The position numbers and the translations under genes are program-made. DNA of 39,229 nucleotides from IMG/VR virus record IMGVR_UViG_2537561824_000013. One strand, given 5' to 3'. Positions 2,687 to 39,229 of the stretch are shown here, one piece after another (position 1 is the first letter of the stretch; the number at the start of each line of letters is the position of its first letter). The stretch is from a virus. Lineage: Duplodnaviria > Heunggongvirae > Uroviricota > Caudoviricetes. The notes under the pieces were generated by a model that saw only the letters and a list, made by a program, of their open reading frames with translations, was not told where the DNA came from and did no database searches.

Positions 2687-3259
2687 TTACATTTCAGGTT
2701 GCGTTATGACAGTCCCAACAGGGTGATAGCGGTAGATCGTTGACAGTCCAATATCATAGATAATTGCCAGCCGCTTTCTGTCATACCCTTTCTGGAGCAA
2801 TCTTGCGATCTGCTCATGCTGCTCCTTCGTCAGTTTCGGGCGACGTCCTCCAACTCTTCCTTGTGCTCGCGCAGCAGCCAGTCCAGCCAGCGTGCGCTCA
2901 ACTATCAGTTCACGCTCCATTTCTGCCAGTGCACCCATCATATGAAAAAAGAACCTTCCCATCGGAGTGCTGGTATCGATTGAATCCGTCAGACTGCGAA
3001 AATTGACACCTTTTGCGCGTAGCTCTTCTGTGAGAGCAATGAGGTGTTTCATTCTTCTACCCAACCGATCCAGCTTCCAGACCACCAATGTATCCCCTCT
3101 TTTAAGGCACTTTAAAGCGCGTTTCAGGCCTGGTCGTTCCGACTTGGTTCCGCTCATTTTGTCCTCAAAAATCTGTTCACATCCTGCGCACATTAATGCA
3201 TTGCGTTGCAAATCTGTGTTTTGGTCATTTGTTGACACACGTATGTAGCCAATCAGCAT
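2687..3259 (-). CDS. gin: Site-specific DNA invertase, Gin/Hin/Pin/Cin family serine recombinase
   Basis: ATG at complement of 3257-3259 preceded by AAGGGAG; product starts MLIGYIRVSTNDQNTDLQRNAL with the catalytic Ser context and ends in an HTH (GLSTIYRY); the 233-aa track ORF starting at GTG 3388 is an over-extension. Confidence 0.9.
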   Translation of the reverse strand: MLIGYIRVSTNDQNTDLQRNALMCAGCEQIFEDKMSGTKSERPGLKRALKCLKRGDTLVVWKLDRLGRRMKHLIALTEELRAKGVNFRSLTDSIDTSTPMGRFFFHMMGALAEMERELIVERTLAGLAAARAQGRVGGRRPKLTKEQHEQIARLLQKGYDRKRLAIIYDIGLSTIYRYHPVGTVITQPEM

Positions 3260-3325
3260 TAAAAATACTCCCTTTTGAGTGGTTAAAGTACTGAGATAAT
3301 GTGGGGAGGATTTGAGAGATAAACG

Positions 3326-3545
3326 TTGGTTTGGGGGAAGGCTCGGCGCTGCCCGTTGGTGTACCTGTTCCGTGGCCCACTGCCACACCGCCAGCAGGCT
3401 GGTTAAAGTGCGACGGGCGCGCCTTTACAAAAGAACAATATCCTGTTCTGGCCAGAGTCTACCCGACCCTCCGTCTTCCCGATTTGCGCGGTGAGTTTAT
3501 CCGTGGATGGGACGACGGGCGAAAAGTGGATACAGGGCGCGATCT
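3326..3545. repeat. Recombination repeat A at the 5' border of fiber cassette 1; inverted relative to repeat C
   Basis: About 220 bp nearly identical to 3765-3985 and, as reverse complement, to about 5150-5370; homology starts at TTGGTTTGGGGGAAGG, which resembles a gix/hix half-site (GGTTT...GGAA). Confidence 0.6.
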
Positions 3546-8197: not shown

Positions 8198-8251
8198 GGG
8201 GGCAGTATTGCCCCCGTGCGGGAACGCTGATATTAAAGGCGTTTAAAAAGC

Positions 8252-10199: not shown

Positions 10200-11083
10200 C
10201 ACACACTCCTCGTCAGTATTCTGGCGGCCATTGCACTTAATTCCGGAGACATGCGGTTGAATGCTGTGCCGGCGGCGTTAAGCTGCCCGGAAACGGTATC
10301 CAGAGCACCTGCAATATTTCTTTTGTCCACACCACTCAGCGCAGACTGTGCCTGCTGTACATACGTGGCTGCTTCGCTGGCTGTTCTGGCCAGACTGATG
10401 GCATCGGGCATGGATTCAGAGAGTGCGTTAAACGCCGGAACACTTTTCCCCAGAGCCCCGGAGATATTACCCAGTCCGCTCATCAGCCCCGGCACACGGG
10501 TCAGTGCGACAACGGGGTTATCCTTCATTTTCTGTGTCACCCGAACGGCGCTGATAGTGGTCTGGAGTACAGACTGCGCCTGTTTCGCATAGTTGACGCC
10601 GTTGCGGATGAACTGCGCCACCCCTGAAGGTGAAGGTATGGCACCGGAGACCGCCCCGACACCCGGGAGCTTCGTGCGTATTGCCGGTGGTTGCAGAGGA
10701 TTTTTCGGGTCACCGGTGTATTCCCGGAGAGACACGGTGGCACTGACAGCCAGCACGTTGCCGGTACTGTCAGTCTGCTCGCTGGTTGCAGTCACATCGG
10801 TAATCACGAACCAGCCGCGATAGTCACCGTTGCCGAAGACCAGCGCCAGTGCCTGATGGGCTTTCATGGCTGTTCGCAGTCTCGCCAGCTCCACATCGGG
10901 TACACAATAATGCTGATGGAAAACCAGAGTTATCTGGATTTCGTCCAGCCTGTCGCCGACGAACTGCAGGCCAGGCTTACCCCCGATGCGGGCATGCTCC
11001 GCATAATCGACGCCGAACGTGGCCTCGAAGCCGTCCCAGTAGGTAATCAGCTCAAACTCAATATCACCCAGTACGGCAAACAT
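10199..11083 (-). CDS. Tail protein (P2 gpU-like / N-terminal-domain-like of Mu N 'DNA circularization' protein)
   Basis: 294-aa ORF immediately after the tape measure, start overlapping its stop; N-terminus MFAVLGDIEFEL...W resembles the gpU/Mu N family. Confidence 0.55.
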   Translation of the reverse strand: MFAVLGDIEFELITYWDGFEATFGVDYAEHARIGGKPGLQFVGDRLDEIQITLVFHQHYCVPDVELARLRTAMKAHQALALVFGNGDYRGWFVITDVTATSEQTDSTGNVLAVSATVSLREYTGDPKNPLQPPAIRTKLPGVGAVSGAIPSPSGVAQFIRNGVNYAKQAQSVLQTTISAVRVTQKMKDNPVVALTRVPGLMSGLGNISGALGKSVPAFNALSESMPDAISLARTASEAATYVQQAQSALSGVDKRNIAGALDTVSGQLNAAGTAFNRMSPELSAMAARILTRSV

Positions 11084-13773
11084 CAGCGGTACTCCTTACG
11101 TTGTTTCTGAGCCAGCAGACGCTCCAGCATTTTTTCCAGCTCATGCAGACTCATATTCAGGGCACCAGTCAGTCCTGCAGGCGCTGTGGTTTCCCTGCCA
11201 TTGAGGAAAAACTGAGGATTAAAGCTGACCTGGATACCACCAGACGTTCCACCGCCGGTTGCAGCTGCACCACGGCCTGAATATCCGGCAGCCAGGATTT
11301 CAGGCGAGGGGATACGGGGAACATCCGGTGTCATCTCATTTGCCAGACGTTGCCCTGGTAAAATCGATGCCCGGGTGGAGAGCGGAATAGCGGGCATGGA
11401 AGACAAACTATTGATTACGGCTCCGATCGCATTTTTAGCAGACGACATAAACCCATTGATATCGGGCAACGGCATACTGAAGCGAACACCTGAAGTGTTA
11501 TCCCGTATTTCTGGCCCCTGGATGCTCACGGGCATTCTGGGGAGCAGTTCACTGGCCATTCGCTGCCCGGCCAGAGCTGCAAGCGGAGTGGTCCGCTGCA
11601 GGCCAATGGCGGCCCCCTGCGCGATATTGTCACCAAAGCCCATAAACACGCGGCTCGGCGAATGAATGCCCAGCTTTTCGCTGAACCAGCCACTGATGCT
11701 GTCACCCATTCCGGTTACACTGGATTTGAGCGACTCCCATTTGTTTTTGATACCGTTAATCAGACCATCGACAAGATGGCCACCGAAGTCGGTAAACTTT
11801 GCCGGCAGATCAACACCAAGATATTTCAGCGCAGCTGCAAAGGCTTTATAGAGCAGGCCTGCCGGCGACCAGTTAATCAGTAACTTACCAATTCCCACAA
11901 TGCCGCCGTTAAAGGCTTCCTGAATGTCTGCCCAGCGCTGTTTAAACCAGCCACTGACTGCCCCCCAGTTGCGGTAGATAAGGTAAGCTGCTGCCGCGAC
12001 AGCGGTGATAACGAGACCGATGGGATTCATCATCAGCGCACGTCCAATCCAGAGAACAGCACGTCCGGCGAGCATAATTCCGCGAACCAGCCCCCCGGAG
12101 AGCACGCCACTCAGTGTTCTGGCTCCTCTGGCGACGGCGCTAAATCCGGTCACCAGCCAGCGGAGCTTACCGCCTTGCCCCAGTGCGAGCGACAGACGAA
12201 GCCAGTTGGCCCGAAGTAAAACAGCATTTTTCCAGACACTTACAAAGGGGGAAATAAGGAGATTCAGCCCCAGTTTGAGACCAACAGTCGCTATCTTAAT
12301 CGCAAGGAGCGCACTGATGAGCTTAAAAGCCCCACTGACAAATTGCGGGTGAGTCGCTACCCAGTGTTTTGCCCCCTGAATGAGTGGAAGCAGTTCCTGA
12401 GTCAAAGAAATAAAAGATGGAGCTAATTGATCGCCCAGCGTAATTGCCAGATCGCGACTGCTGACCATAAGTGTTTTAGTGGCTTCAAGGGGAGATTTCA
12501 GCCGCTGATCATAAGCACTGGCAAGCAAATCGTTATCCGCAGCCCTGAGAGCACCGGCACGGATCTCTCGATATCTGTCCATGTTGGCCAGCATCGGGCG
12601 GATAAATGCCATGACCTGCATATCCGCGAACATATCGCCCAGACCAAAGTTTTTCGCCAGAGCCTGAAGTGCCTCATCTCTTGCCGTATCATTCTTTATT
12701 TTCATGGCTGATTTGAAGCCGGCCAGCGCTTCGGGGCTTTTGGCATTGAGGTAACGTTCTATAACACTCAACATCCCTTCAATCGGAGAGATCCCCGCAG
12801 CTTTATAACTCGCAATAGATCCCTGCAAATCAATACCCAGATCAGCAAACTGTTTCTGAGTATCGCGGGCAAAAATTTTGGTAAGAAAGTTTTTAAAATT
12901 ATTGGCTGCTTCGTCGGTGGAACCTGCACCGATTTTTGCTATCTGGAGACTGGCCCCGATTTCAGCAACAGCCTCTTTTCCACTGGCAATACCCGCCATC
13001 ATTGGGGCCAGGGACTGCATCCACTTGACCTGATCCGGGATTTCAAATGACCCCTGGTCACCGGCATAAGCCATAATATTCTGAACGGCACCAAAATCTC
13101 TGGCCGCACCTTTCAGGGAGTTTTGCCAGACTGCGGCCACTTTTGCCCAGTCCTGAGCAGACGTGCGTGTTGCCGTTGCCGCGCGGGCAATATCCGGCAT
13201 CAGAAAACCGATATCTGACACATTATCAATATTGTCGCTGATGAGTGAACCCACCGCCTCCTGCAGCTCATCCTGATACTGATTGTATTTAAGCGCCCAG
13301 CCTTTTATCTGTCCGGCAAGTCCATCCCGCGTTTTATTGTCATATTTTGCGGTGATCGACATATCAATCATTTTGTCCTGAAAAGACATGGACTGCTGAA
13401 CGGCAGGGGAAACCGTATGATAAACAGTCTGTGCCATGCCATACGCTTCAATCCCCTGACCATACAGCGCCATGCGGTTAGCTTTCAGCGCATCACTGGT
13501 AGCGGATGCCGCTGACAGACGGCGCTGCTGGCGCTCAATTTGCTCCATGGTGCGGCTTACCCGCAGCAGCTCGCTGTTGAGATGCTGCATCCGGGAAGAA
13601 CCCAGTTGACCATAACGTTCTGTTGCACGGGTTAAAGCGTTCTGACGTTCCTGCAGGCGGCGTGAGGTATCGCTCAGGGAATCAAGCGCACGGCGGGTAC
13701 CGCTCATTGCAGAACGGAATGTGCTACCAATCATCCCGCCGATAACAACGCCGACTGAAAACTGTCCCGACAT
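11083..13773 (-). CDS. Tail tape measure protein
   Basis: 896-aa ORF with ATG at 13773; long Ala/Gly/Leu-rich, alpha-helical-looking protein with hydrophobic central segments, located after the tail chaperone genes. Confidence 0.85.
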   Translation of the reverse strand: MSGQFSVGVVIGGMIGSTFRSAMSGTRRALDSLSDTSRRLQERQNALTRATERYGQLGSSRMQHLNSELLRVSRTMEQIERQQRRLSAASATSDALKANRMALYGQGIEAYGMAQTVYHTVSPAVQQSMSFQDKMIDMSITAKYDNKTRDGLAGQIKGWALKYNQYQDELQEAVGSLISDNIDNVSDIGFLMPDIARAATATRTSAQDWAKVAAVWQNSLKGAARDFGAVQNIMAYAGDQGSFEIPDQVKWMQSLAPMMAGIASGKEAVAEIGASLQIAKIGAGSTDEAANNFKNFLTKIFARDTQKQFADLGIDLQGSIASYKAAGISPIEGMLSVIERYLNAKSPEALAGFKSAMKIKNDTARDEALQALAKNFGLGDMFADMQVMAFIRPMLANMDRYREIRAGALRAADNDLLASAYDQRLKSPLEATKTLMVSSRDLAITLGDQLAPSFISLTQELLPLIQGAKHWVATHPQFVSGAFKLISALLAIKIATVGLKLGLNLLISPFVSVWKNAVLLRANWLRLSLALGQGGKLRWLVTGFSAVARGARTLSGVLSGGLVRGIMLAGRAVLWIGRALMMNPIGLVITAVAAAAYLIYRNWGAVSGWFKQRWADIQEAFNGGIVGIGKLLINWSPAGLLYKAFAAALKYLGVDLPAKFTDFGGHLVDGLINGIKNKWESLKSSVTGMGDSISGWFSEKLGIHSPSRVFMGFGDNIAQGAAIGLQRTTPLAALAGQRMASELLPRMPVSIQGPEIRDNTSGVRFSMPLPDINGFMSSAKNAIGAVINSLSSMPAIPLSTRASILPGQRLANEMTPDVPRIPSPEILAAGYSGRGAAATGGGTSGGIQVSFNPQFFLNGRETTAPAGLTGALNMSLHELEKMLERLLAQKQRKEYR

Positions 13774-13848
13774 AGTGGTTAACCTCCGGGGAAGGTGAAA
13801 AGACGTGAGGGGATAACGCAGAACAGCCGCTACTGGCGGCTGTCTGTA

Positions 13849-14266
13849 CTATGATTTGTCGCCGTACTCGCTTTTTATTTGCTCTTCAGCCTGCTCCAGC
13901 CACATCTCCAGATCGTCAGTATCGAGGGCATCAATCTCCCCCGGCTGAAACCGGAACCATCTCGCCAGCAGCCCCTGCGCCTGCGTCAGCGCCCTAGTTG
14001 CTCTCACCCATCCCCGTGATGAGCTGAAATCGTTTCTGTAACTGCAGGTAATCAGCCAGATCCATATTGTCGAGATCTTCCGGGAGAAGACCAGTACTGC
14101 GGGCAATCAGCGGTTCGTCCCAGTCTGCCGGGTTTTTGCTGATTTTGCGCACCTGCTTCAGGTCTTTTACCGTCAGGCGTTTCAGTTCAACCTGCTCAAT
14201 TCTGGTGCCTGCAGCAGTGGTGAAGGGATAAGACAATTTAAAAGTATCGGATGGGGTCTGTGACAT
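13849..14266 (-). CDS. Tail assembly chaperone pair (gpE-like 90-aa product plus candidate frameshift-extended E+E'-like product)
   Basis: ATG at 14266 with AGGAG upstream; a second ORF (13849-14106) overlaps the 3' third in another frame, the usual geometry for a programmed frameshift before the tape measure; no slippery heptamer identified. Confidence 0.5.
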
Positions 14267-14342
14267 GATTGTGCTCCTGTGTAAGTTCAGGGCAGTATGT
14301 CGGGAGAAGCGCGTGACGGATATTAAAGGAGATTAAGAAGAA

Positions 14343-14356
14343 GGGGCCGGAGCCCC
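14343..14356 (-). terminator. Candidate intrinsic terminator on the late strand between the tube and chaperone genes
   Basis: GGGGCCGGAGCCCC gives a 5-bp GC stem with a 4-nt loop, followed on the minus strand by TTCTTCTTAATCTCCTTT. Confidence 0.4.
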
Positions 14357-14648
14357 TGTGATGTCAGCAAGTGCGAAACCCCTTGCAGTTACGCAGGAAA
14401 GCGATGAGAAGCGTCTTTCCCTCAGATTTGCCGGTGCCGGAGAACCAGTGGTCGGGAGGCTCCCATGCTTCAATCAAATCCGCCAGTTTGCGGGCCTTTG
14501 AACGTGTGCAGTCAATCGGGTCATTGGTTTTACGGGTATTAAAAAGGGTTTCCACCCCCCGGAATATCAAGGAGGGTAAACCACGTACCATTTGACATGC
14601 CCAGTGCCGCACATCGTCTTCCTTTATCCGTCAGTTCAACACTCATCG

Positions 14649-15170
14649 TCAGCCCCCGATATTGATACGGTAGTCAGTCAGTTGATCAACACCGCCGACC
14701 CGGAAGATGTTGGCCAGATAGTCCAGTTGCAGCAGCTCTTCACCATCCAGTACCTGTCTGATATACGTGCAGGTGAAGCTACTGGAGAACTCGGCGTTCT
14801 CGTGCTGTTTGAACGTCCCCAGAGGGTTCTTCTTGAACATAATCGTCAGGAAGGTGACCAGCGGGATTTCGTCAATCAGCCCCTGCGAGCTGTAGCGCTG
14901 GACGCTGGAACGACACTGCAGTGCCAGCGACCTGTACGGGTTAGCGGCAGACAGCATCGCATCGCGGTAAAAGCTGTTCCATTTGATTTCGCCTTCCAGT
15001 TTGTCAAAACCAGCCGGGAGTTCCACCTTACCCACCATCCCCAGCGCCTTGTGTTCCTGCATAATCATGGAGACATCGGGGAGTTTAACTTCCTCAGCCC
15101 GTCCCAGCAGGTTAGTACCATCCAGATAGATGTTGGCATTCGTGATGCGGTTTATCTCAATCTTTGACAT
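14649..15170 (-). CDS. Tail tube protein (Mu M / P2 FII-like)
   Basis: 173-aa ORF with ATG at 15170, immediately after the sheath gene. Confidence 0.75.
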   Translation of the reverse strand: MSKIEINRITNANIYLDGTNLLGRAEEVKLPDVSMIMQEHKALGMVGKVELPAGFDKLEGEIKWNSFYRDAMLSAANPYRSLALQCRSSVQRYSSQGLIDEIPLVTFLTIMFKKNPLGTFKQHENAEFSSSFTCTYIRQVLDGEELLQLDYLANIFRVGGVDQLTDYRINIGG

Positions 15171-16597
15171 CAGTTGCCCCCTTTCAGGGTTAACAGGTAT
15201 TCCGAGGTGATCTCAGTCTCAAACGTCAGTCGCTCCAGCGGCGGTGGTGGCGTATATTTGTAGCTCAGCAACAGGTGCCCGGCGGCCAGCTCCGTCTCCG
15301 GATTGCGGGCCGGATCAAACCAGCAACGGAAGCCCAGTACCGCACCATCACCAGTCATTTTGCGACCGTAGGCGTTGACCGACTCCGTCAGTGCATCAAT
15401 CAGCGCCTGAGTAATCGGCATGTCGATGTACTGCTGGCTGAAATAACGAATGGACTCGTTGATCACATCACCGGTGCGGCGAACGTTCTCAAAGTTACGC
15501 ATATGGGTGACCGTTGGCCATGCTGCCGTCCGGTTACCCCACAGACGAAGGCCGCTGCCGTAACTGCTGAATACCGTGGTGATCCCCTGTTCGTTAAGCA
15601 GGTTTACCTCACTCTGCGGGTCATCAATCATCGCGGACAGCTGGCGCTCCACGCCGGTGATCCCCAGAATCTCCTGATTGGAGGATGACCACCAGTAGCC
15701 CTTGTCCAGATCGACTCTGGCACGCAGACCTGCTGCACGCTGGCTGAGCGGCTCCAGACGCTCTGTGTTTGTCACCGGGTCATATACCTTCACATGCGGA
15801 TAGCACAGACGGACGCGGTCGGAGCTGGTATTGAAGTTGATGGTGCCTTCCGGGCCACGACCTGCCAGAGCCTGTGCAAAGGTGGTACCGACAGGCGCAT
15901 CAATGTAGGTTACCGCGCCCAGCTTCTCTGCCATGGCGATAAGCTCAACTGCGACACTCTTCTGGGTGCAGAACACCGGCGCAATCAGAATTTTGGCGAA
16001 ATAGCCGTACAGGTTGAAGCTGTCGTTAAGCAGCTTCATGCCGGTTCGGTTTCCGGCGCTGTTCACCCCGCCGATGATGTCCGCCGCAGTCACCTTCGAC
16101 GGGTCCGCGTACTCATAGCTCACCTTCACGCTGCCACCGGCCTCAATAGCCTTGCCCAGGTTCGTGAGCACACCCGCCTGCGCATCAACACGGTAGTCCG
16201 TGTTCGCCGTGTGGGTGGTGCTGCCTTCACTGTTTTTCACCACCACATTAGCGACAACCGGATGCGCCAGTCTGGCCTGCCCTGTCGATTTGTCAAAGGT
16301 AACCACCTCATCCTCGATCGCCGTTTTATGTTTCGCCGGGTCGAGGACGTTAATGACCAGAACGGTGCCTGCACCATGGTCATAAATCGCATCCAGCGCC
16401 TGCGGAATGGTAAAGCCGGTGAACTGGCTGCCAAATGCCGCTGCGTCTTTCTCAGACAGGCACTGTACCAGCGTATTGACATCCCCCATCGGGGCGGTAC
16501 CAATCAGGCCAATAACGGCAGATTTCACCGTTTTAACCGGGCGGGCTCCGTTTTCCACCTCAATGGTTTCGGGACCATGCAGATAGTTAGCTGCCAT
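15170..16597 (-). CDS. Contractile tail sheath protein (Mu L / P2 FI-like)
   Basis: 475-aa ORF with ATG at 16597; size and position characteristic. Confidence 0.85.
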   Translation of the reverse strand: MAANYLHGPETIEVENGARPVKTVKSAVIGLIGTAPMGDVNTLVQCLSEKDAAAFGSQFTGFTIPQALDAIYDHGAGTVLVINVLDPAKHKTAIEDEVVTFDKSTGQARLAHPVVANVVVKNSEGSTTHTANTDYRVDAQAGVLTNLGKAIEAGGSVKVSYEYADPSKVTAADIIGGVNSAGNRTGMKLLNDSFNLYGYFAKILIAPVFCTQKSVAVELIAMAEKLGAVTYIDAPVGTTFAQALAGRGPEGTINFNTSSDRVRLCYPHVKVYDPVTNTERLEPLSQRAAGLRARVDLDKGYWWSSSNQEILGITGVERQLSAMIDDPQSEVNLLNEQGITTVFSSYGSGLRLWGNRTAAWPTVTHMRNFENVRRTGDVINESIRYFSQQYIDMPITQALIDALTESVNAYGRKMTGDGAVLGFRCWFDPARNPETELAAGHLLLSYKYTPPPPLERLTFETEITSEYLLTLKGGN

Positions 16598-20181: not shown

Positions 20182-20395
20182 TTTGCTGTCCCGCGTTATG
20201 TTGTCGGAGACAGTTTGTGAGAAATGCAGGCCCGGCGATTTTAATCTGCTTTAGAAAACATCAGGGGAGAAGGACAGGGAAAGCAATACGGTGAACCGGA
20301 GGCGGTTATAAAACAGAGGCTGTAAAGCCTTTATAAAGGTAATACAGCCCCTCATTCGCTGGCAATGATAAATCACCCGCCTGAAGAGAGAAAAC
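20182..20395 (-). promoter_or_regulatory. Candidate late promoter region upstream of the protease gene (Mu P_I equivalent) with nested dyad symmetry
   Basis: The only sizeable intergenic gap (214 bp) in the packed late arm; contains GGCTGTA...TACAGCC flanking the perfect palindrome CCTTTATAAAGG (20327-20338). Confidence 0.35.
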
Positions 20396-27653: not shown

Positions 27654-27783
27654 GTGTGTCTCCTTATCTGGTGGAGACAGCATCACAAATACAGGGCGCG
27701 AAGGATTTTAAAGCGCGTTAAGAGAGCCGGGGATACGGGATGTGCAGGATAAACGATGAATTATTCACAGAGGAGAATACGAT

Positions 27784-28512
27784 ATGACGCAGACACTGAA
27801 TCCGGTCATCACTGTCACCGTGTCCGGTCCTGTGGGCAGCGGTAAAAGTTACGTACTGGCGCGAATAGAGGAAGTGGTGAAACAGGAATTCGGAAACAGC
27901 GTCATTGTCGACGCCGCAGACGTGGACGGTGAGCGCCGTATGAGTGGGGATGATCTGAGCACATGGCAGAAACCACGGGCTGGCACAGTGATCAGGCTGG
28001 AGGAATACACGGGACAGGGCCTGTTGTCATACGGCGAGGAGCGTATCTGTCGGACGAATGAGCTGCTGGATGTTATATGCCCCACGGGCCGGCAACCCTG
28101 GATACTGCCCGATGCACTGCATGCCACCATTGCGGCACTGATGACAGTTTACGATCAGGAGCTGCTCATGAAGGAGTTACGTAAACTCACTGGTCAGTCA
28201 ACAGAATGTTGTTCGTCCCCGAAGTACGGCAAACAGGAACACATCCCGATTAACCAGCCTCCCCGGTTCTTCGACGAATACCTTCTGACACCGGAAAATA
28301 AAGCTGAGCATGAAGAGATCAAAGCGGCGTTGTTCCGGGAAATCAGGAAGATTGCTGAAATGCAACTGGAGGGCGGGCTGGACAGAGTGATGGCGAGAGG
28401 AGAATGGGCATCGCTGTTTGAAAGAGTTTCCCCGGAATTACTTCCCCTCGCACTGGCTATCGGGATTATGCAGACAGCGGATAAACCTCACTTACGTTCA
28501 TTAAACACGTAA
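27784..28512 (+). CDS. Hypothetical protein with N-terminal P-loop (Walker A) motif; unknown function
   Basis: ATG at 27784 with AGGAGAA upstream; Walker A-like GPVGSGKS at residues 15-22; the remainder is unrecognisable to me. Confidence 0.6.
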   Translation: MTQTLNPVITVTVSGPVGSGKSYVLARIEEVVKQEFGNSVIVDAADVDGERRMSGDDLSTWQKPRAGTVIRLEEYTGQGLLSYGEERICRTNELLDVICPTGRQPWILPDALHATIAALMTVYDQELLMKELRKLTGQSTECCSSPKYGKQEHIPINQPPRFFDEYLLTPENKAEHEEIKAALFREIRKIAEMQLEGGLDRVMARGEWASLFERVSPELLPLALAIGIMQTADKPHLRSLNT

Positions 28513-29106: not shown

Positions 29107-29160
29107 TCCCTAAACCACATTAACAGAAATCCCGCCATCCCTGCCGCATCATGAAAGAAC

Positions 29161-29192: not shown

Positions 29193-29296
29193 ATCGCCCC
29201 ACAGGAATGCGCTGTGAGCCGACCAAGGTTCAGTCAGTCTCGCGAGACCTGACCAGACTGCCATATTTTTTAATAATTGTAAAAGGCTTGCAGATT

Positions 29297-30061
29297 ATGA
29301 AAATGCAGACATTACCCATCGTGCCGTGGATTGGTGGCAAACGCCGCCTTGCAAAACACATTCTGCCGCTGTTTCCGGCGCATGAATGTTATGTGGAGCC
29401 GTTTTGTGGGGCAGCAGCGCTCTATTTTCTTAAGACACCCGGCAAGATCGAAGTCATCAATGATATCAACGGTGAACTGGTGAATCTGTACCGGGTGGTA
29501 AAGCATCACCTGGAAGAATTTGTCCGCCAGTTCAAATGGGCGCTGGTCAGCCGTCAGATCTACAAATGGCTGCAGATCACCCCGGAAGAAACACTGACGG
29601 ATATCCAGCGTGCGGCACGGTTCTACTACCTTCAGAAGCAGGCGTTTGGCGGCAAGGTGGCAGAGCACAGCTTCGGTACCTCCACCACATCCCCGCCACG
29701 CTTCAACCTGCTACGTATTGAAGAAGAACTGTCAGCGGCACACCTGCGGCTTTCCAGAACAGTCATAGAACACATGGACTGGCAACAGTGCATTGAGCGT
29801 TATGATCGTCCGCACACGCTGTTCTACTGCGACCCACCGTACCTGGGTACGGAAGGCTATGGTGTGGATTTTCCTGAAGGGAACTACTCGCGGCTGGCAG
29901 AGCTGGCCCGGTGCATCAGAGGAAAAATGATAATTTCGGTGAACGACATCCCGCAGATGCGCGAGGTGTTCACTGGACTGAACATACAGACAGTGAATAT
30001 CAACTACAGTCTGGCGGGTAAACCCACGCCGCGCCGTGAACTGCTAATCTGCAACTTCTGA
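29297..30061 (+). CDS. DNA adenine methyltransferase, Dam-like (D12 class N6-adenine MTase)
   Basis: ATG at 29297; product MKMQTLPIVPWIGGKRRLAKHILP... has the Dam-type N-terminus, an AdoMet motif (EPFCGAAALYF) and the catalytic DPPY motif; specificity cannot be read from sequence. Confidence 0.85.
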   Translation: MKMQTLPIVPWIGGKRRLAKHILPLFPAHECYVEPFCGAAALYFLKTPGKIEVINDINGELVNLYRVVKHHLEEFVRQFKWALVSRQIYKWLQITPEETLTDIQRAARFYYLQKQAFGGKVAEHSFGTSTTSPPRFNLLRIEEELSAAHLRLSRTVIEHMDWQQCIERYDRPHTLFYCDPPYLGTEGYGVDFPEGNYSRLAELARCIRGKMIISVNDIPQMREVFTGLNIQTVNINYSLAGKPTPRRELLICNF

Positions 30062-38418: not shown

Positions 38419-38868
38419 ATGCAGAAAAAACGCCTGATACAGCTTATCCATATTGCCCGTAATGAACTGGGTATGGATGAAGACACCTACCGCCAGATGT
38501 TACAGGGGCTGACCGGTAAAGCCTCAACCAAAGGAATGGATACCACACAACTAAACTGCGTGCTGGAATCCATGAAAAAGAAAGGCTTTCGCGTTAAACC
38601 AGCCAGAAAAGCCAGCTCCGGTTTACCGCTGGATAACCATCCGCAGTCCAGGAAAATTCGTGCGCTATGGCTTGAAATGGCTGCTGCCGGCATTGTTCGT
38701 GACCGTTCAGAAAATGCATTAGCGAGGTGGATCAAGCGGGAAACGGGCATCAGCGCCCTGCGCTGGCTCAGTACTGAACAGGCAAGCAGTGTTATTGAGA
38801 AACTGAAGAAGTGGCAGCGCAGAGCTGCGGGAGTCAAACATGAGCGACCTGAATCAGTTTCGAAGTAA
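38419..38868 (+). CDS. gemA: GemA-like early regulatory protein (Mu gp16 family)
   Basis: 149-aa product starting MQKKRLIQLIHIARNELGMDEDTYRQ, resembling Mu GemA; lies immediately upstream of mor as in Mu. Confidence 0.7.
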   Translation: MQKKRLIQLIHIARNELGMDEDTYRQMLQGLTGKASTKGMDTTQLNCVLESMKKKGFRVKPARKASSGLPLDNHPQSRKIRALWLEMAAAGIVRDRSENALARWIKRETGISALRWLSTEQASSVIEKLKKWQRRAAGVKHERPESVSK

Positions 38869-39229
38869 GGGGCCGGAACTCCTGGTGGAACTGGCACAGC
38901 ATCCCTCTGAGACCGTTCGCGAGATTATTGATATTGAGCCCGAAGTTGCCGACCAGATTGGTCAGGCCGTCGCGAACCGAATGATGCAGGTCTGGGGCGG
39001 GCAAAACGTTTATTTCCCGATGGGCATGGTATGGAAGGTCAGTCAGCGCGACCGGGAAATCTTCAGGGAGTTTAACGGACGCAACCACCACGAACTGGCC
39101 CGCAAATTTGGTGTTTCGCTTCAGTGGGTCTACAGCGTGGTTAAGCGGGTAAGAAAAGAAGAACTGGATCGGATGCAGGGCAAGCTATTTGCTGATGAAC
39201 CCGATGCAGATACGGAGAAAAAAGAGTAA
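38840..39229 (+). CDS. mor: Mor-like middle transcription activator
   Basis: 129-aa product, the same length as Mu Mor, with a C-terminal HTH (HHELARKFGVSLQWVYSVVKRVR); the stop codon is the last three bases of the window. Confidence 0.8.
   Translation: MSDLNQFRSKGPELLVELAQHPSETVREIIDIEPEVADQIGQAVANRMMQVWGGQNVYFPMGMVWKVSQRDREIFREFNGRNHHELARKFGVSLQWVYSVVKRVRKEELDRMQGKLFADEPDADTEKKE

Follow-up and report, generated by a model that had tools for sequence, protein, structure and literature searches.

What occupies the 382 bp that separate the tail tube gene from the tail assembly chaperone gene in this prophage, and why are the two genes not joined by a short spacer, as they are in several of its relatives? 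The interval lies in a stretch of 39,229 nucleotides, here called the window, which is 100% identical to the chromosome of Escherichia coli EcPF7 and was found in 641 of 5,426 complete E. coli genomes (~12%). Escherichia phage PhiKM (Bcepmuvirus) is 99.3% identical to the window and a piece filed under Klebsiella phage KP12 87% identical, and BcepMu and phiE255 reach ~67% identity over the tube gene; by its relatedness to these phages the window is classed as a BcepMu-like (Mu-type) transposable prophage of E. coli. GemA, Gam and Mor-family activator genes were detected within the window, and the late genes of the prophage lie on its minus strand.

An earlier note on this DNA had described the interval as an insert-like gap in the tail operon, with a terminator hairpin and a weak ORF. 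The flanking gene calls (PF04985 and PF10109) confirm the interval at 14267-14648, but rather than being a gap with a weak ORF it holds a gene, a hairpin and a promoter-like module. All three parts, read as gene, terminator and promoter, are of known kinds. We consider it likely that they make up a compound junction of two late transcription units, consisting of a lodged cargo gene, a predicted terminator and a predicted late promoter. In the order of late transcription, the features of the locus are:

15170-16597, minus strand: sheath gene
14649-15170, minus strand: tail tube gene, the upstream neighbour (PF04985 Phage_tube, E 2.9e-53), with stop codon TGA at 14649-14651
14364-14646, minus strand: accessory gene of 93 codons (phrog_1239), ATG at 14644-14646 and TGA at 14364-14366, frameshifted in the window
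14555-14560, minus strand: homopolymer of six G (G6) within the accessory gene; the intact allele, from the alignment of relatives, has five (G5), and the extra G shifts the frame
14342-14357, minus strand: GC hairpin AGGGGC-UCCG-GCCCCU, 6-21 nt past the stop of the small gene; predicted intrinsic terminator of the sheath-tube-small gene unit
14332-14341, minus strand: U-rich tail UCUUCUUAAU, overlapping the first dyad half-site
14323-14336, minus strand: dyad TTAA-TCTCCT-TTAA, predicted site of a Mor/C-family activator, centred at about -42.5/-43.5 if CATACT is the -10
14294-14299, minus strand: -10-like CATACT without a -35; 23 nt separate it from the dyad upstream and 27 nt from the chaperone ATG downstream
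14274-14278, minus strand: Shine-Dalgarno AGGAG of the chaperone gene, read from the sequence and conserved in the alignment of relatives
13994-14266, minus strand: tail assembly chaperone gene (P2 gpE / Mu gp41 type), the downstream neighbour (PF10109, E 1.9e-22)
11083-13773, minus strand: tape measure gene

An accessory gene adjoining the tail tube gene

The 75-codon frame that had been noticed earlier, starting at the ATG at 14589-14591, is present inside a listed ORF of 82 aa (14364-14612). Its first 11 codons are out of frame, the rest encode residues 30-93 of a 93-aa protein, and it thus covers the C-terminal two thirds of a 93-codon gene. The lack of a convincing ribosome binding site before 14591, also pointed out earlier, is accounted for, since the gene really begins with the ATG at 14644-14646, which is preceded by a GGGGG stretch and lies 2 nt past the tube stop codon. 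A second short ORF (14539-14646, 35 aa), which had been missed, fuses with the 75/82-aa ORF upon removal of one G from the run at 14555-14560. With this G deleted, the translation is a 10.4-kDa protein of 93 aa, identical to database cluster P0001. An intact CDS of 93 aa is annotated at the same position in PhiKM and KP12, and the identical copy in EcPF7 carries the PGAP label “hypothetical protein, frameshifted”.

The protein matches the phrog_1239 profile over its full length (residues 1-93, E 4.7e-48). Pfam family DUF7739 scores 24.9 bits against the window protein, under its cut-off of 27, and is matched by 11 of the 48 members of the family alignment (best E 7.3e-19); neither DUF7739 nor phrog_1239 has a function assigned to it. 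NCBIfam and PADLOC searches of the protein returned no matches, PDB sequence searches with two profiles gave chance matches only (E ~1), and a literature search yielded no paper naming DUF7739. Family members are ~93 aa long and share the motifs NGTWF, TNDP and C-x-GF-x-T; in an exhaustive profile search they formed 76 clusters at 50% identity, nearly all of 90-100 aa. The order of tube, accessory gene, ~97 nt and chaperone is constant in Photorhabdus and at other loci. Nucleotide changes are concentrated at third codon positions, with a dN/dS of 0.15 between the window gene and KP12 and of 0.10 between KP12 and Photorhabdus, and the accessory gene is therefore under purifying selection. Its GC content of 51.9%, compared with 50-57% in its neighbours, reveals no compositional anomaly, and a sigma-70 scan of 13700-15300 found no promoter-like site for it.

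The AlphaFold2 model of the 93-aa protein is a confident alpha/beta structure (pLDDT 88.7, pTM 0.80). A Foldseek search against the PDB gave nothing significant, with no match of E below 0.08, and a structure search of BFVD gave one weak, unnamed match. The nearest folds among the non-significant Foldseek matches, at 6-13% identity, are the HU-binding DNA mimic DMP12 of Neisseria, a CdiI immunity protein and YfbM, folds that are grouped with SUKH-type immunity proteins. A function as DNA mimic, as the DMP12 match would imply, is ruled out by the basic character of the protein (pI 8.8). We take the likeness of the modelled fold only as a hint that the protein may act by binding other proteins or as an inhibitor.

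The hairpin and the promoter-like module at the junction

The GC hairpin and the U-rich tract that had been seen on the late strand are indeed there, at 14342-14357 and directly behind it. The stem comprises 6 pairs (5 G-C) with a loop of 4 nt and a predicted energy of -12.8 kcal/mol (z -2.25). The U-tract of the window is interrupted, with 5 U in 8, so the hairpin may be a weak terminator here; the tract is likewise poor at one related locus (L008), and BcepMu has UUUUUU. A pattern scan for such hairpins found 3 sites vs 1.3 expected locally and 29 vs 19.5 in 20 kb. The hairpin alone is thus not beyond chance and becomes significant only when relatives are compared. An Rfam search of 13800-15200 matched solely an archaeal snoRNA, which at 16 bits against a cut-off of 45 was discarded.

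The tube protein was used to fetch 80 loci from different species, and 85 junctions were analysed in all. Relatives carrying the accessory gene all have the same stem, GGGGC/GCCCC, with a loop of UCCG, UUCG or AUCA, and differ in the rest of the spacer. At the same junction BcepMu, which lacks the gene, has GGCCCGC-UUCG-GCGGGCC-UUUUUU, and a Salmonella relative, also without the gene, has UUCGGGGC-UGCG-GCCCCGAA. A perfect GC hairpin lies within 150 nt of the chaperone start in 77 of the 85 junctions, at a median distance of 78 nt; these hairpins have 35 distinct stems, 31 contain a UUCG loop, and 58 of the 77 are followed by a T-rich tail. A strict terminator definition (6 or more stem pairs, 5 or more of them G-C, followed by 8 bases with 4 or more T) applies to 55 of the 85 junctions vs 1 of 425 control windows of coding DNA. 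The terminator hairpin proposed earlier to follow the sheath and tube genes is hence supported as a conserved feature. Comparing the junctions of relatives, as the earlier note had suggested, revealed a hairpin that is kept where the gene is missing and a gene that is itself lineage-restricted. By this pattern the hairpin is ancestral to the junction and not part of the insert, with cargo entering upstream of it. Retention of the structure despite sequence change, together with RNA-type tetraloops, argues for a function at the RNA level, and intrinsic termination would be the obvious one for the predicted hairpin.

Directly downstream of the hairpin, an alignment of the spacers of 22 diverse relatives displays the pattern TAA-N6-TTAA, followed exactly 23 nt on by the -10-like nA(T/C)A(A/C)T, whereas the rest of the spacer is divergent. 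The module is present at exact spacing in 58 of the 85 relatives vs 4 of 850 random windows. The U-rich tail of the hairpin overlaps the dyad, and part of the conservation of the tail may serve the promoter. Within the window, TTAA-N6-TTAA occurs 4 times vs 0.26 expected, and the dyad with a -10 at the fixed spacing has 3 matches vs 0 expected, all on the late strand. A relaxed form of the module has 6 matches vs 0.07 expected. They precede the holin, scaffold/protease-position, chaperone and gp25/W genes and, on the other strand, the D12 adenine methyltransferase gene; the sixth (27709-27750, plus strand) arises because the dyad at the holin site is palindromic and is matched on the complementary strand as well. 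No promoter is assigned to the fourth TTAA-N6-TTAA (3102-3115), which is internal to the resolvase gene and is not followed by a correctly spaced -10. The sister modules on the late strand and the activator gene of the window are:

27679-27721, minus strand: sister module ahead of the holin gene, with which the late genes begin
20212-20253, minus strand: sister module upstream of the scaffold/protease-position gene, after the Mu G-like gene
8203-8246, minus strand: sister module between the spike (gpV-like) and gp25/W baseplate genes
38840-39229, plus strand: Mor/C-family activator gene, following GemA (PF08765 Mor, E 7.8e-43)

BcepMu has equivalents of the module before gp21 (holin), gp32, gp41 and gp49 (between gp48 and gp49), the second half-site of its chaperone module being degenerate (CTGA), and its gp01 is also annotated as Mor-family. 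A literature search found nothing on BcepMu late promoters. In phage Mu, the late promoters possess a -10 but no -35, and the C-binding dyad is centred at -43.5 (PMC2582627; see also bioRxiv 10.1101/2025.05.02.651988). In CATACT, positions 2 and 6 are A and T, and no TTGACA-like hexamer is found 17 nt upstream of it. The assignment of CATACT as the -10 (at -12 to -7), and hence the centring of the dyad at about -43, is an assumption that depends on an assumed start site. With this proviso, the layout of the module is that of a predicted Mor/C-dependent late promoter of the Mu type. A sigma-70 scan of the junction, which requires a -35, found no promoter; such a scan would come out blank because activator-dependent promoters that lack a -35 are missed by it.

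The hairpin had been interpreted earlier as an attenuator that sets stoichiometry by partial read-through. In its pure form, this explanation holds that a leaky hairpin lies within one long late operon without internal promoter and keeps the chaperone and tape measure products below those of sheath and tube. It accommodates the conservation of the hairpin at the junction, the imperfect U-tract of the window and the absence of a sigma-70 consensus promoter from 13700-15300. It is also favoured by the Salmonella-type relatives with short spacers (L006, L066, L067 and L071), which keep the hairpin and lack the promoter module, so that the hairpin must be leaky and read-through must occur there. 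Pure attenuation does not, however, explain the exactly spaced dyad and -10 in 58 of the 85 relatives, nor the recurrence of the module before four other late genes or operons, where 0-0.07 matches are expected, nor the Mor-family activator encoded by the prophage, and the blank sigma-70 scan carries little weight against promoters of a kind that such scans cannot see (PMC2582627). We therefore regard the pure attenuator as unlikely, and stoichiometry set by read-through is probably not the main mechanism at this junction, given the conserved Mor/C-type module directly downstream. With a promoter module immediately behind the hairpin, the two blocks of genes look like separate late transcription units, and only the short-spacer relatives of Salmonella type, which lack the module, would need read-through.

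Cargo upstream of the hairpin and its decay in the window copy

The description of the interval as insert-like was borne out by the relatives: tube and chaperone genes are joined by 121 nt in BcepMu and phiE255 and by 51 nt in a Salmonella relative, in each case without the 93-aa gene. Among the 85 junctions, 36 have short spacers of at most 180 nt, 21 carry the 93-aa gene or its remnants, 25 hold other inserts of 180-700 nt and 3 hold long inserts. The other inserts include a Fer2-like protein of ~110 aa in Pectobacterium, a Phage_gp49_66 (gp49/Sf6-66-like) protein ahead of the 93-aa gene and, separately, an uncharacterized 66-aa protein. Cargo lies without exception upstream of the junction hairpin, and a distant member of the 93-aa family adjoins a Bro-N gene in a non-tail phage context. 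The absence of the gene from relatives, the variety of inserts and the Bro-N context mark the 93-aa gene as apparently mobile and dispensable cargo. It is moron-like, lying between two genes that related phages have side by side (the 36 short spacers have no such gene), and falls short of the full definition: it has neither a promoter of its own nor atypical composition, and the hairpin behind it, being ancestral, is not its own terminator. The moron concept stems from HK97/lambda phages. Of the small moron that the earlier note had offered as an alternative, the part that stands is a selected accessory gene absent from close relatives; the gene has no promoter of its own, starts at 14646, comprises 93 codons and is frameshifted in the window copy.

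Could the 93-aa protein instead be a lineage-specific tail component or assembly factor? Its strict synteny in Enterobacterales is what such a role would predict, as is the position of its start abutting the tube stop and upstream of the terminator, from which it would be made at the level of sheath and tube. Yet the gene is absent from BcepMu, phiE255, the Salmonella-type phages and many others whose tube proteins are 66-97% identical, it has been repeatedly lost, truncated or frameshifted, the slot is filled elsewhere by unrelated genes (Fer2-like, gp49-like, the 66-aa protein), and its distant relative sits beside a Bro-N gene, away from tail genes. A tail function thus seems improbable, and we favour cargo unrelated to the tail.

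The alignment of relatives shows one difference that matters, GGGGGG in the window and in EcPF7 vs GGGGG in the others. An 81-mer across the G-run was matched against complete E. coli genomes, 622 of which carry the stretch: 9 have the exact sequence (G6) and 609 match at 95-99% identity. Among the matches listed, the non-exact copies agree at 80 of 81 bases and are one base shorter. G5 was found in every intact copy read directly, and one locus (L022) has G4. The G6 genomes fall into two groups, the first comprising EcPF7, MLI121, MLI114, TUM1857 and JMK_KBN3987, from several isolation sources, the second four N-strains of one series. In the first group the G6 allele is accompanied by a rare C-to-T change in the chaperone gene, which makes TAG at codon 91 in place of the CAG of PhiKM and at which the window copy ends; the second group lacks this TAG. 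Of 592 genomes, 6 carry this TAG: the five of the first G6 group and FCI23, whose combination of TAG with G5 is what two real mutations arising one after the other would leave.

Two candidate readings of the chaperone gene were set aside. Its TAG does not serve as proof of a dead prophage: a conserved UUU-C candidate slip site lies upstream of it, and the fusion may still form. The G5 stretch GCC-GGG-GGA before the chaperone stop of PhiKM was rejected as a chaperone frameshift site, as KP12 and L008 have a zero-frame stop upstream of the run.

The frame of the accessory gene in the window is broken relative to intact orthologues that are under selection. The shift falls after codon 30 and would leave only an N-terminal fragment of 35 aa, which makes the window copy, as read from its sequence, a pseudogene. 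Gene calls of the same frameshift type, 82 aa long, exist in other lineages (clusters P0018, P0021 and P0023), and the G-run is a mild slippage hotspot. Other forms of decay comprise a premature stop (L016) and an N-terminal deletion shared by several Photorhabdus species (L031-L036). The locus does not behave as a phase-variable one: the run is 5-6 nt long, and ~98% of the genomes are about one position away from the G6 81-mer, consistent with G5.

Single-base homopolymer errors are the commonest error of long-read and some short-read sequencing platforms, and the G6 allele is rare (9 of 622 genomes), so the extra G might be thought an error of sequencing or assembly and the gene intact in the real organism. 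However, five assemblies have this G6; their strains bear different names and come from several isolation sources, and they share a rare TAG substitution of a kind that homopolymer errors do not yield. This linkage indicates inherited mutations and not read errors, and FCI23 supplies a fitting intermediate for two successive real mutations; we judge an error very unlikely, though any one assembly taken alone might still contain such an error. Continued expression of the G6 gene by +1 ribosomal slippage, transcriptional slippage or phase variation, yielding a switchable or low-level 93-aa protein, is hardly credible: the run length does change repeatedly (G6 in two clones, the 82-aa calls elsewhere, G4 in L022), and, judging from the sequence, the frame would be restored if the glycine tRNA slipped by +1 on GGG-G, but G5 is in frame in all intact copies read and 609 of 622 genomes lie about one position from the G6 81-mer, no stimulatory element was seen, the other routes of decay (L016, L031-L036) point to dispensability and not to regulation, and the run, at 5-6 G, is short for phase variation or slippage to work efficiently.

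A putative late-transcription map and its parallels

In the compound junction that we propose, the accessory gene, having no promoter of its own, would be the last gene of the late unit that includes sheath and tube, and would probably be translationally coupled. The hairpin would act as an intrinsic terminator for this unit, which would run from the scaffold/protease-position gene to the tube. The Mor/C-type promoter right after the terminator would start the next unit, with a leader of ~20 nt containing AGGAG, and the Mor-family protein of the phage would activate this promoter and thereby the chaperone, tape measure and hub genes.

A more speculative extension, to which we give less than even credence, is that the stretch from tube stop to terminator constitutes a dedicated cargo slot of BcepMu-like phages on their strongest late transcript, and that the 93-aa protein binds or inhibits, in stoichiometric amounts, some protein of the host or of a rival phage; it is a doubtful proposal. 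Were it true, the protein would serve in anti-defence, exclusion or host takeover instead of forming part of the virion.

What seemed an intergenic oddity comes down in this way to a frameshifted accessory gene, a probable terminator and a probable activator-dependent promoter, each of them ordinary. The example also shows that a “weak ORF without RBS” can turn out to be the remainder of a disrupted gene. The predicted modules, four on the late strand and a fifth before the DNA methylase gene, amount to a testable late-transcription map for BcepMu-like prophages, and the variable cargo slot upstream of the junction terminator could be mined for small, late-expressed accessory proteins. The current understanding of phage biology is unchanged by these results.

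The accessory gene resembles morons as an extra, dispensable gene that is followed by a terminator and lies between genes adjacent elsewhere; unlike morons, it has no promoter of its own and no compositional anomaly, and its terminator predates the insertion. For the hairpin, the closest parallels are terminators after highly expressed structural genes. In T7, the terminator T-phi follows gene 10. Intrinsic termination sites behind the tail tube and chaperone genes have been mapped by ONT-cappable-seq in the Listeria phage CKA15 (PMC12282133). The predicted terminator shares with these the GC stem-loop and U-rich tail right after such genes, and differs in being known from prediction, in its interrupted U-tract and in the promoter module that stands at once behind it.

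[quoted passage not shown] They depart from these in their half-sites (TTAA-N6-TTAA, 14 bp), in the extra copy between tube and chaperone and in the single Mor-family gene seen in the window, and they are known here from sequence alone. They are alike in having a -10 without a -35, a dyad near -43.5 and a Mor/C-family gene in the same phage, and in the placement of their copies before lysis, head, tail, baseplate and DNA-modification genes, which parallels that of Plys, PI, PP and Pmom in Mu.

Slot genes in other genera and two unusual records

In other genera, the slot, that is, the tube-chaperone junction interval upstream of the predicted terminator hairpin, carries different small genes (loci L012, L013, L015, L022; L025, L027, L040, L058; L047-L057). 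Family matches were obtained for a Phage_gp49_66 protein (E 2e-12) and a Fer2-like protein of ~110 aa (E 3e-6). A further slot protein, 66 aa long, is without family.

Two of the related loci stem from records with unexpected labels. L011 (NZ_PJIO01000028.1) is an 8-kb contig filed as the actinobacterium 'Arthrobacter sp. GMC3'. Its tube gene shares 100% identity with that of the E. coli prophage in the window, and the contig carries the intact (G5) form of the 93-codon slot gene; it is probably a contamination of the Arthrobacter assembly. L003 (OM835952.1, 'Klebsiella phage KP12 clone KP12_2') is labelled Vequintavirinae, yet gene order of this 35-kb piece is BcepMu-like, and it probably represents prophage DNA that co-purified.

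The chaperone stop allele and a second hairpin

13994-13996, minus strand: chaperone codon 91, TAG; the counterpart in the close relative PhiKM is CAG
13823-13843, minus strand: second conserved hairpin, ACAGCCGC-CAGTA-GCGGCUGU

The TAG at chaperone codon 91, labelled 'internal stop' by PGAP, is a rare allele, present in 6 of 592 complete E. coli genomes, five of which also harbor the G6 allele, the frameshifted form of the slot gene. As the zero frame is not conserved beyond codon 90, this stop may be harmless. The second hairpin is located directly past the E' stop codon and ahead of the tape-measure gene; in KP12 the stem is retained and the loop differs.

Further predicted promoter modules and a recombinase gene

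29111-29152, plus strand: predicted Mor/C-type module upstream of a D12-class adenine DNA methyltransferase gene (29207-30061)
27709-27750, plus strand: module match opposite the holin module, with a palindromic dyad, facing the divergent gene 27784-28512
2687-3388, minus strand: serine recombinase gene with Resolvase and HTH_7 domains

Mor/C-type modules, predicted late promoters combining a TTAA-N6-TTAA dyad with a -10-like hexamer at fixed spacing, were matched on both strands ahead of the holin gene, where the dyad is palindromic (27679-27721, minus; 27709-27750, plus). This predicted module is possibly bidirectional, or the plus-strand match may have arisen by chance. The predicted module ahead of the methyltransferase gene recalls the C-dependent mom promoter of Mu. 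The late region has the serine recombinase gene at its tail-fibre end, a combination suggesting an invertible host-range segment, for which Mu Gin provides the precedent.

Chaperone extension frame and candidate slip site

13849-14106, minus strand: GpE-like extension frame, read against the chaperone frame
14024-14032, minus strand: candidate slip site, conserved CGA-UUU-CAG

The GpE-like extension lies in the +1 (equivalently -2) frame relative to the chaperone in all eight relatives examined. CGA-UUU-CAG is conserved at the candidate slip site, the BcepMu version being UUU-CGC; either would provide UUU-C as a candidate +1 slip site. The P2 chaperone frameshift is -1, unlike the extension frame of these eight relatives. 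For Mu, a -2 shift was reported by Xu et al. 2004, as cited in PMC2628397.
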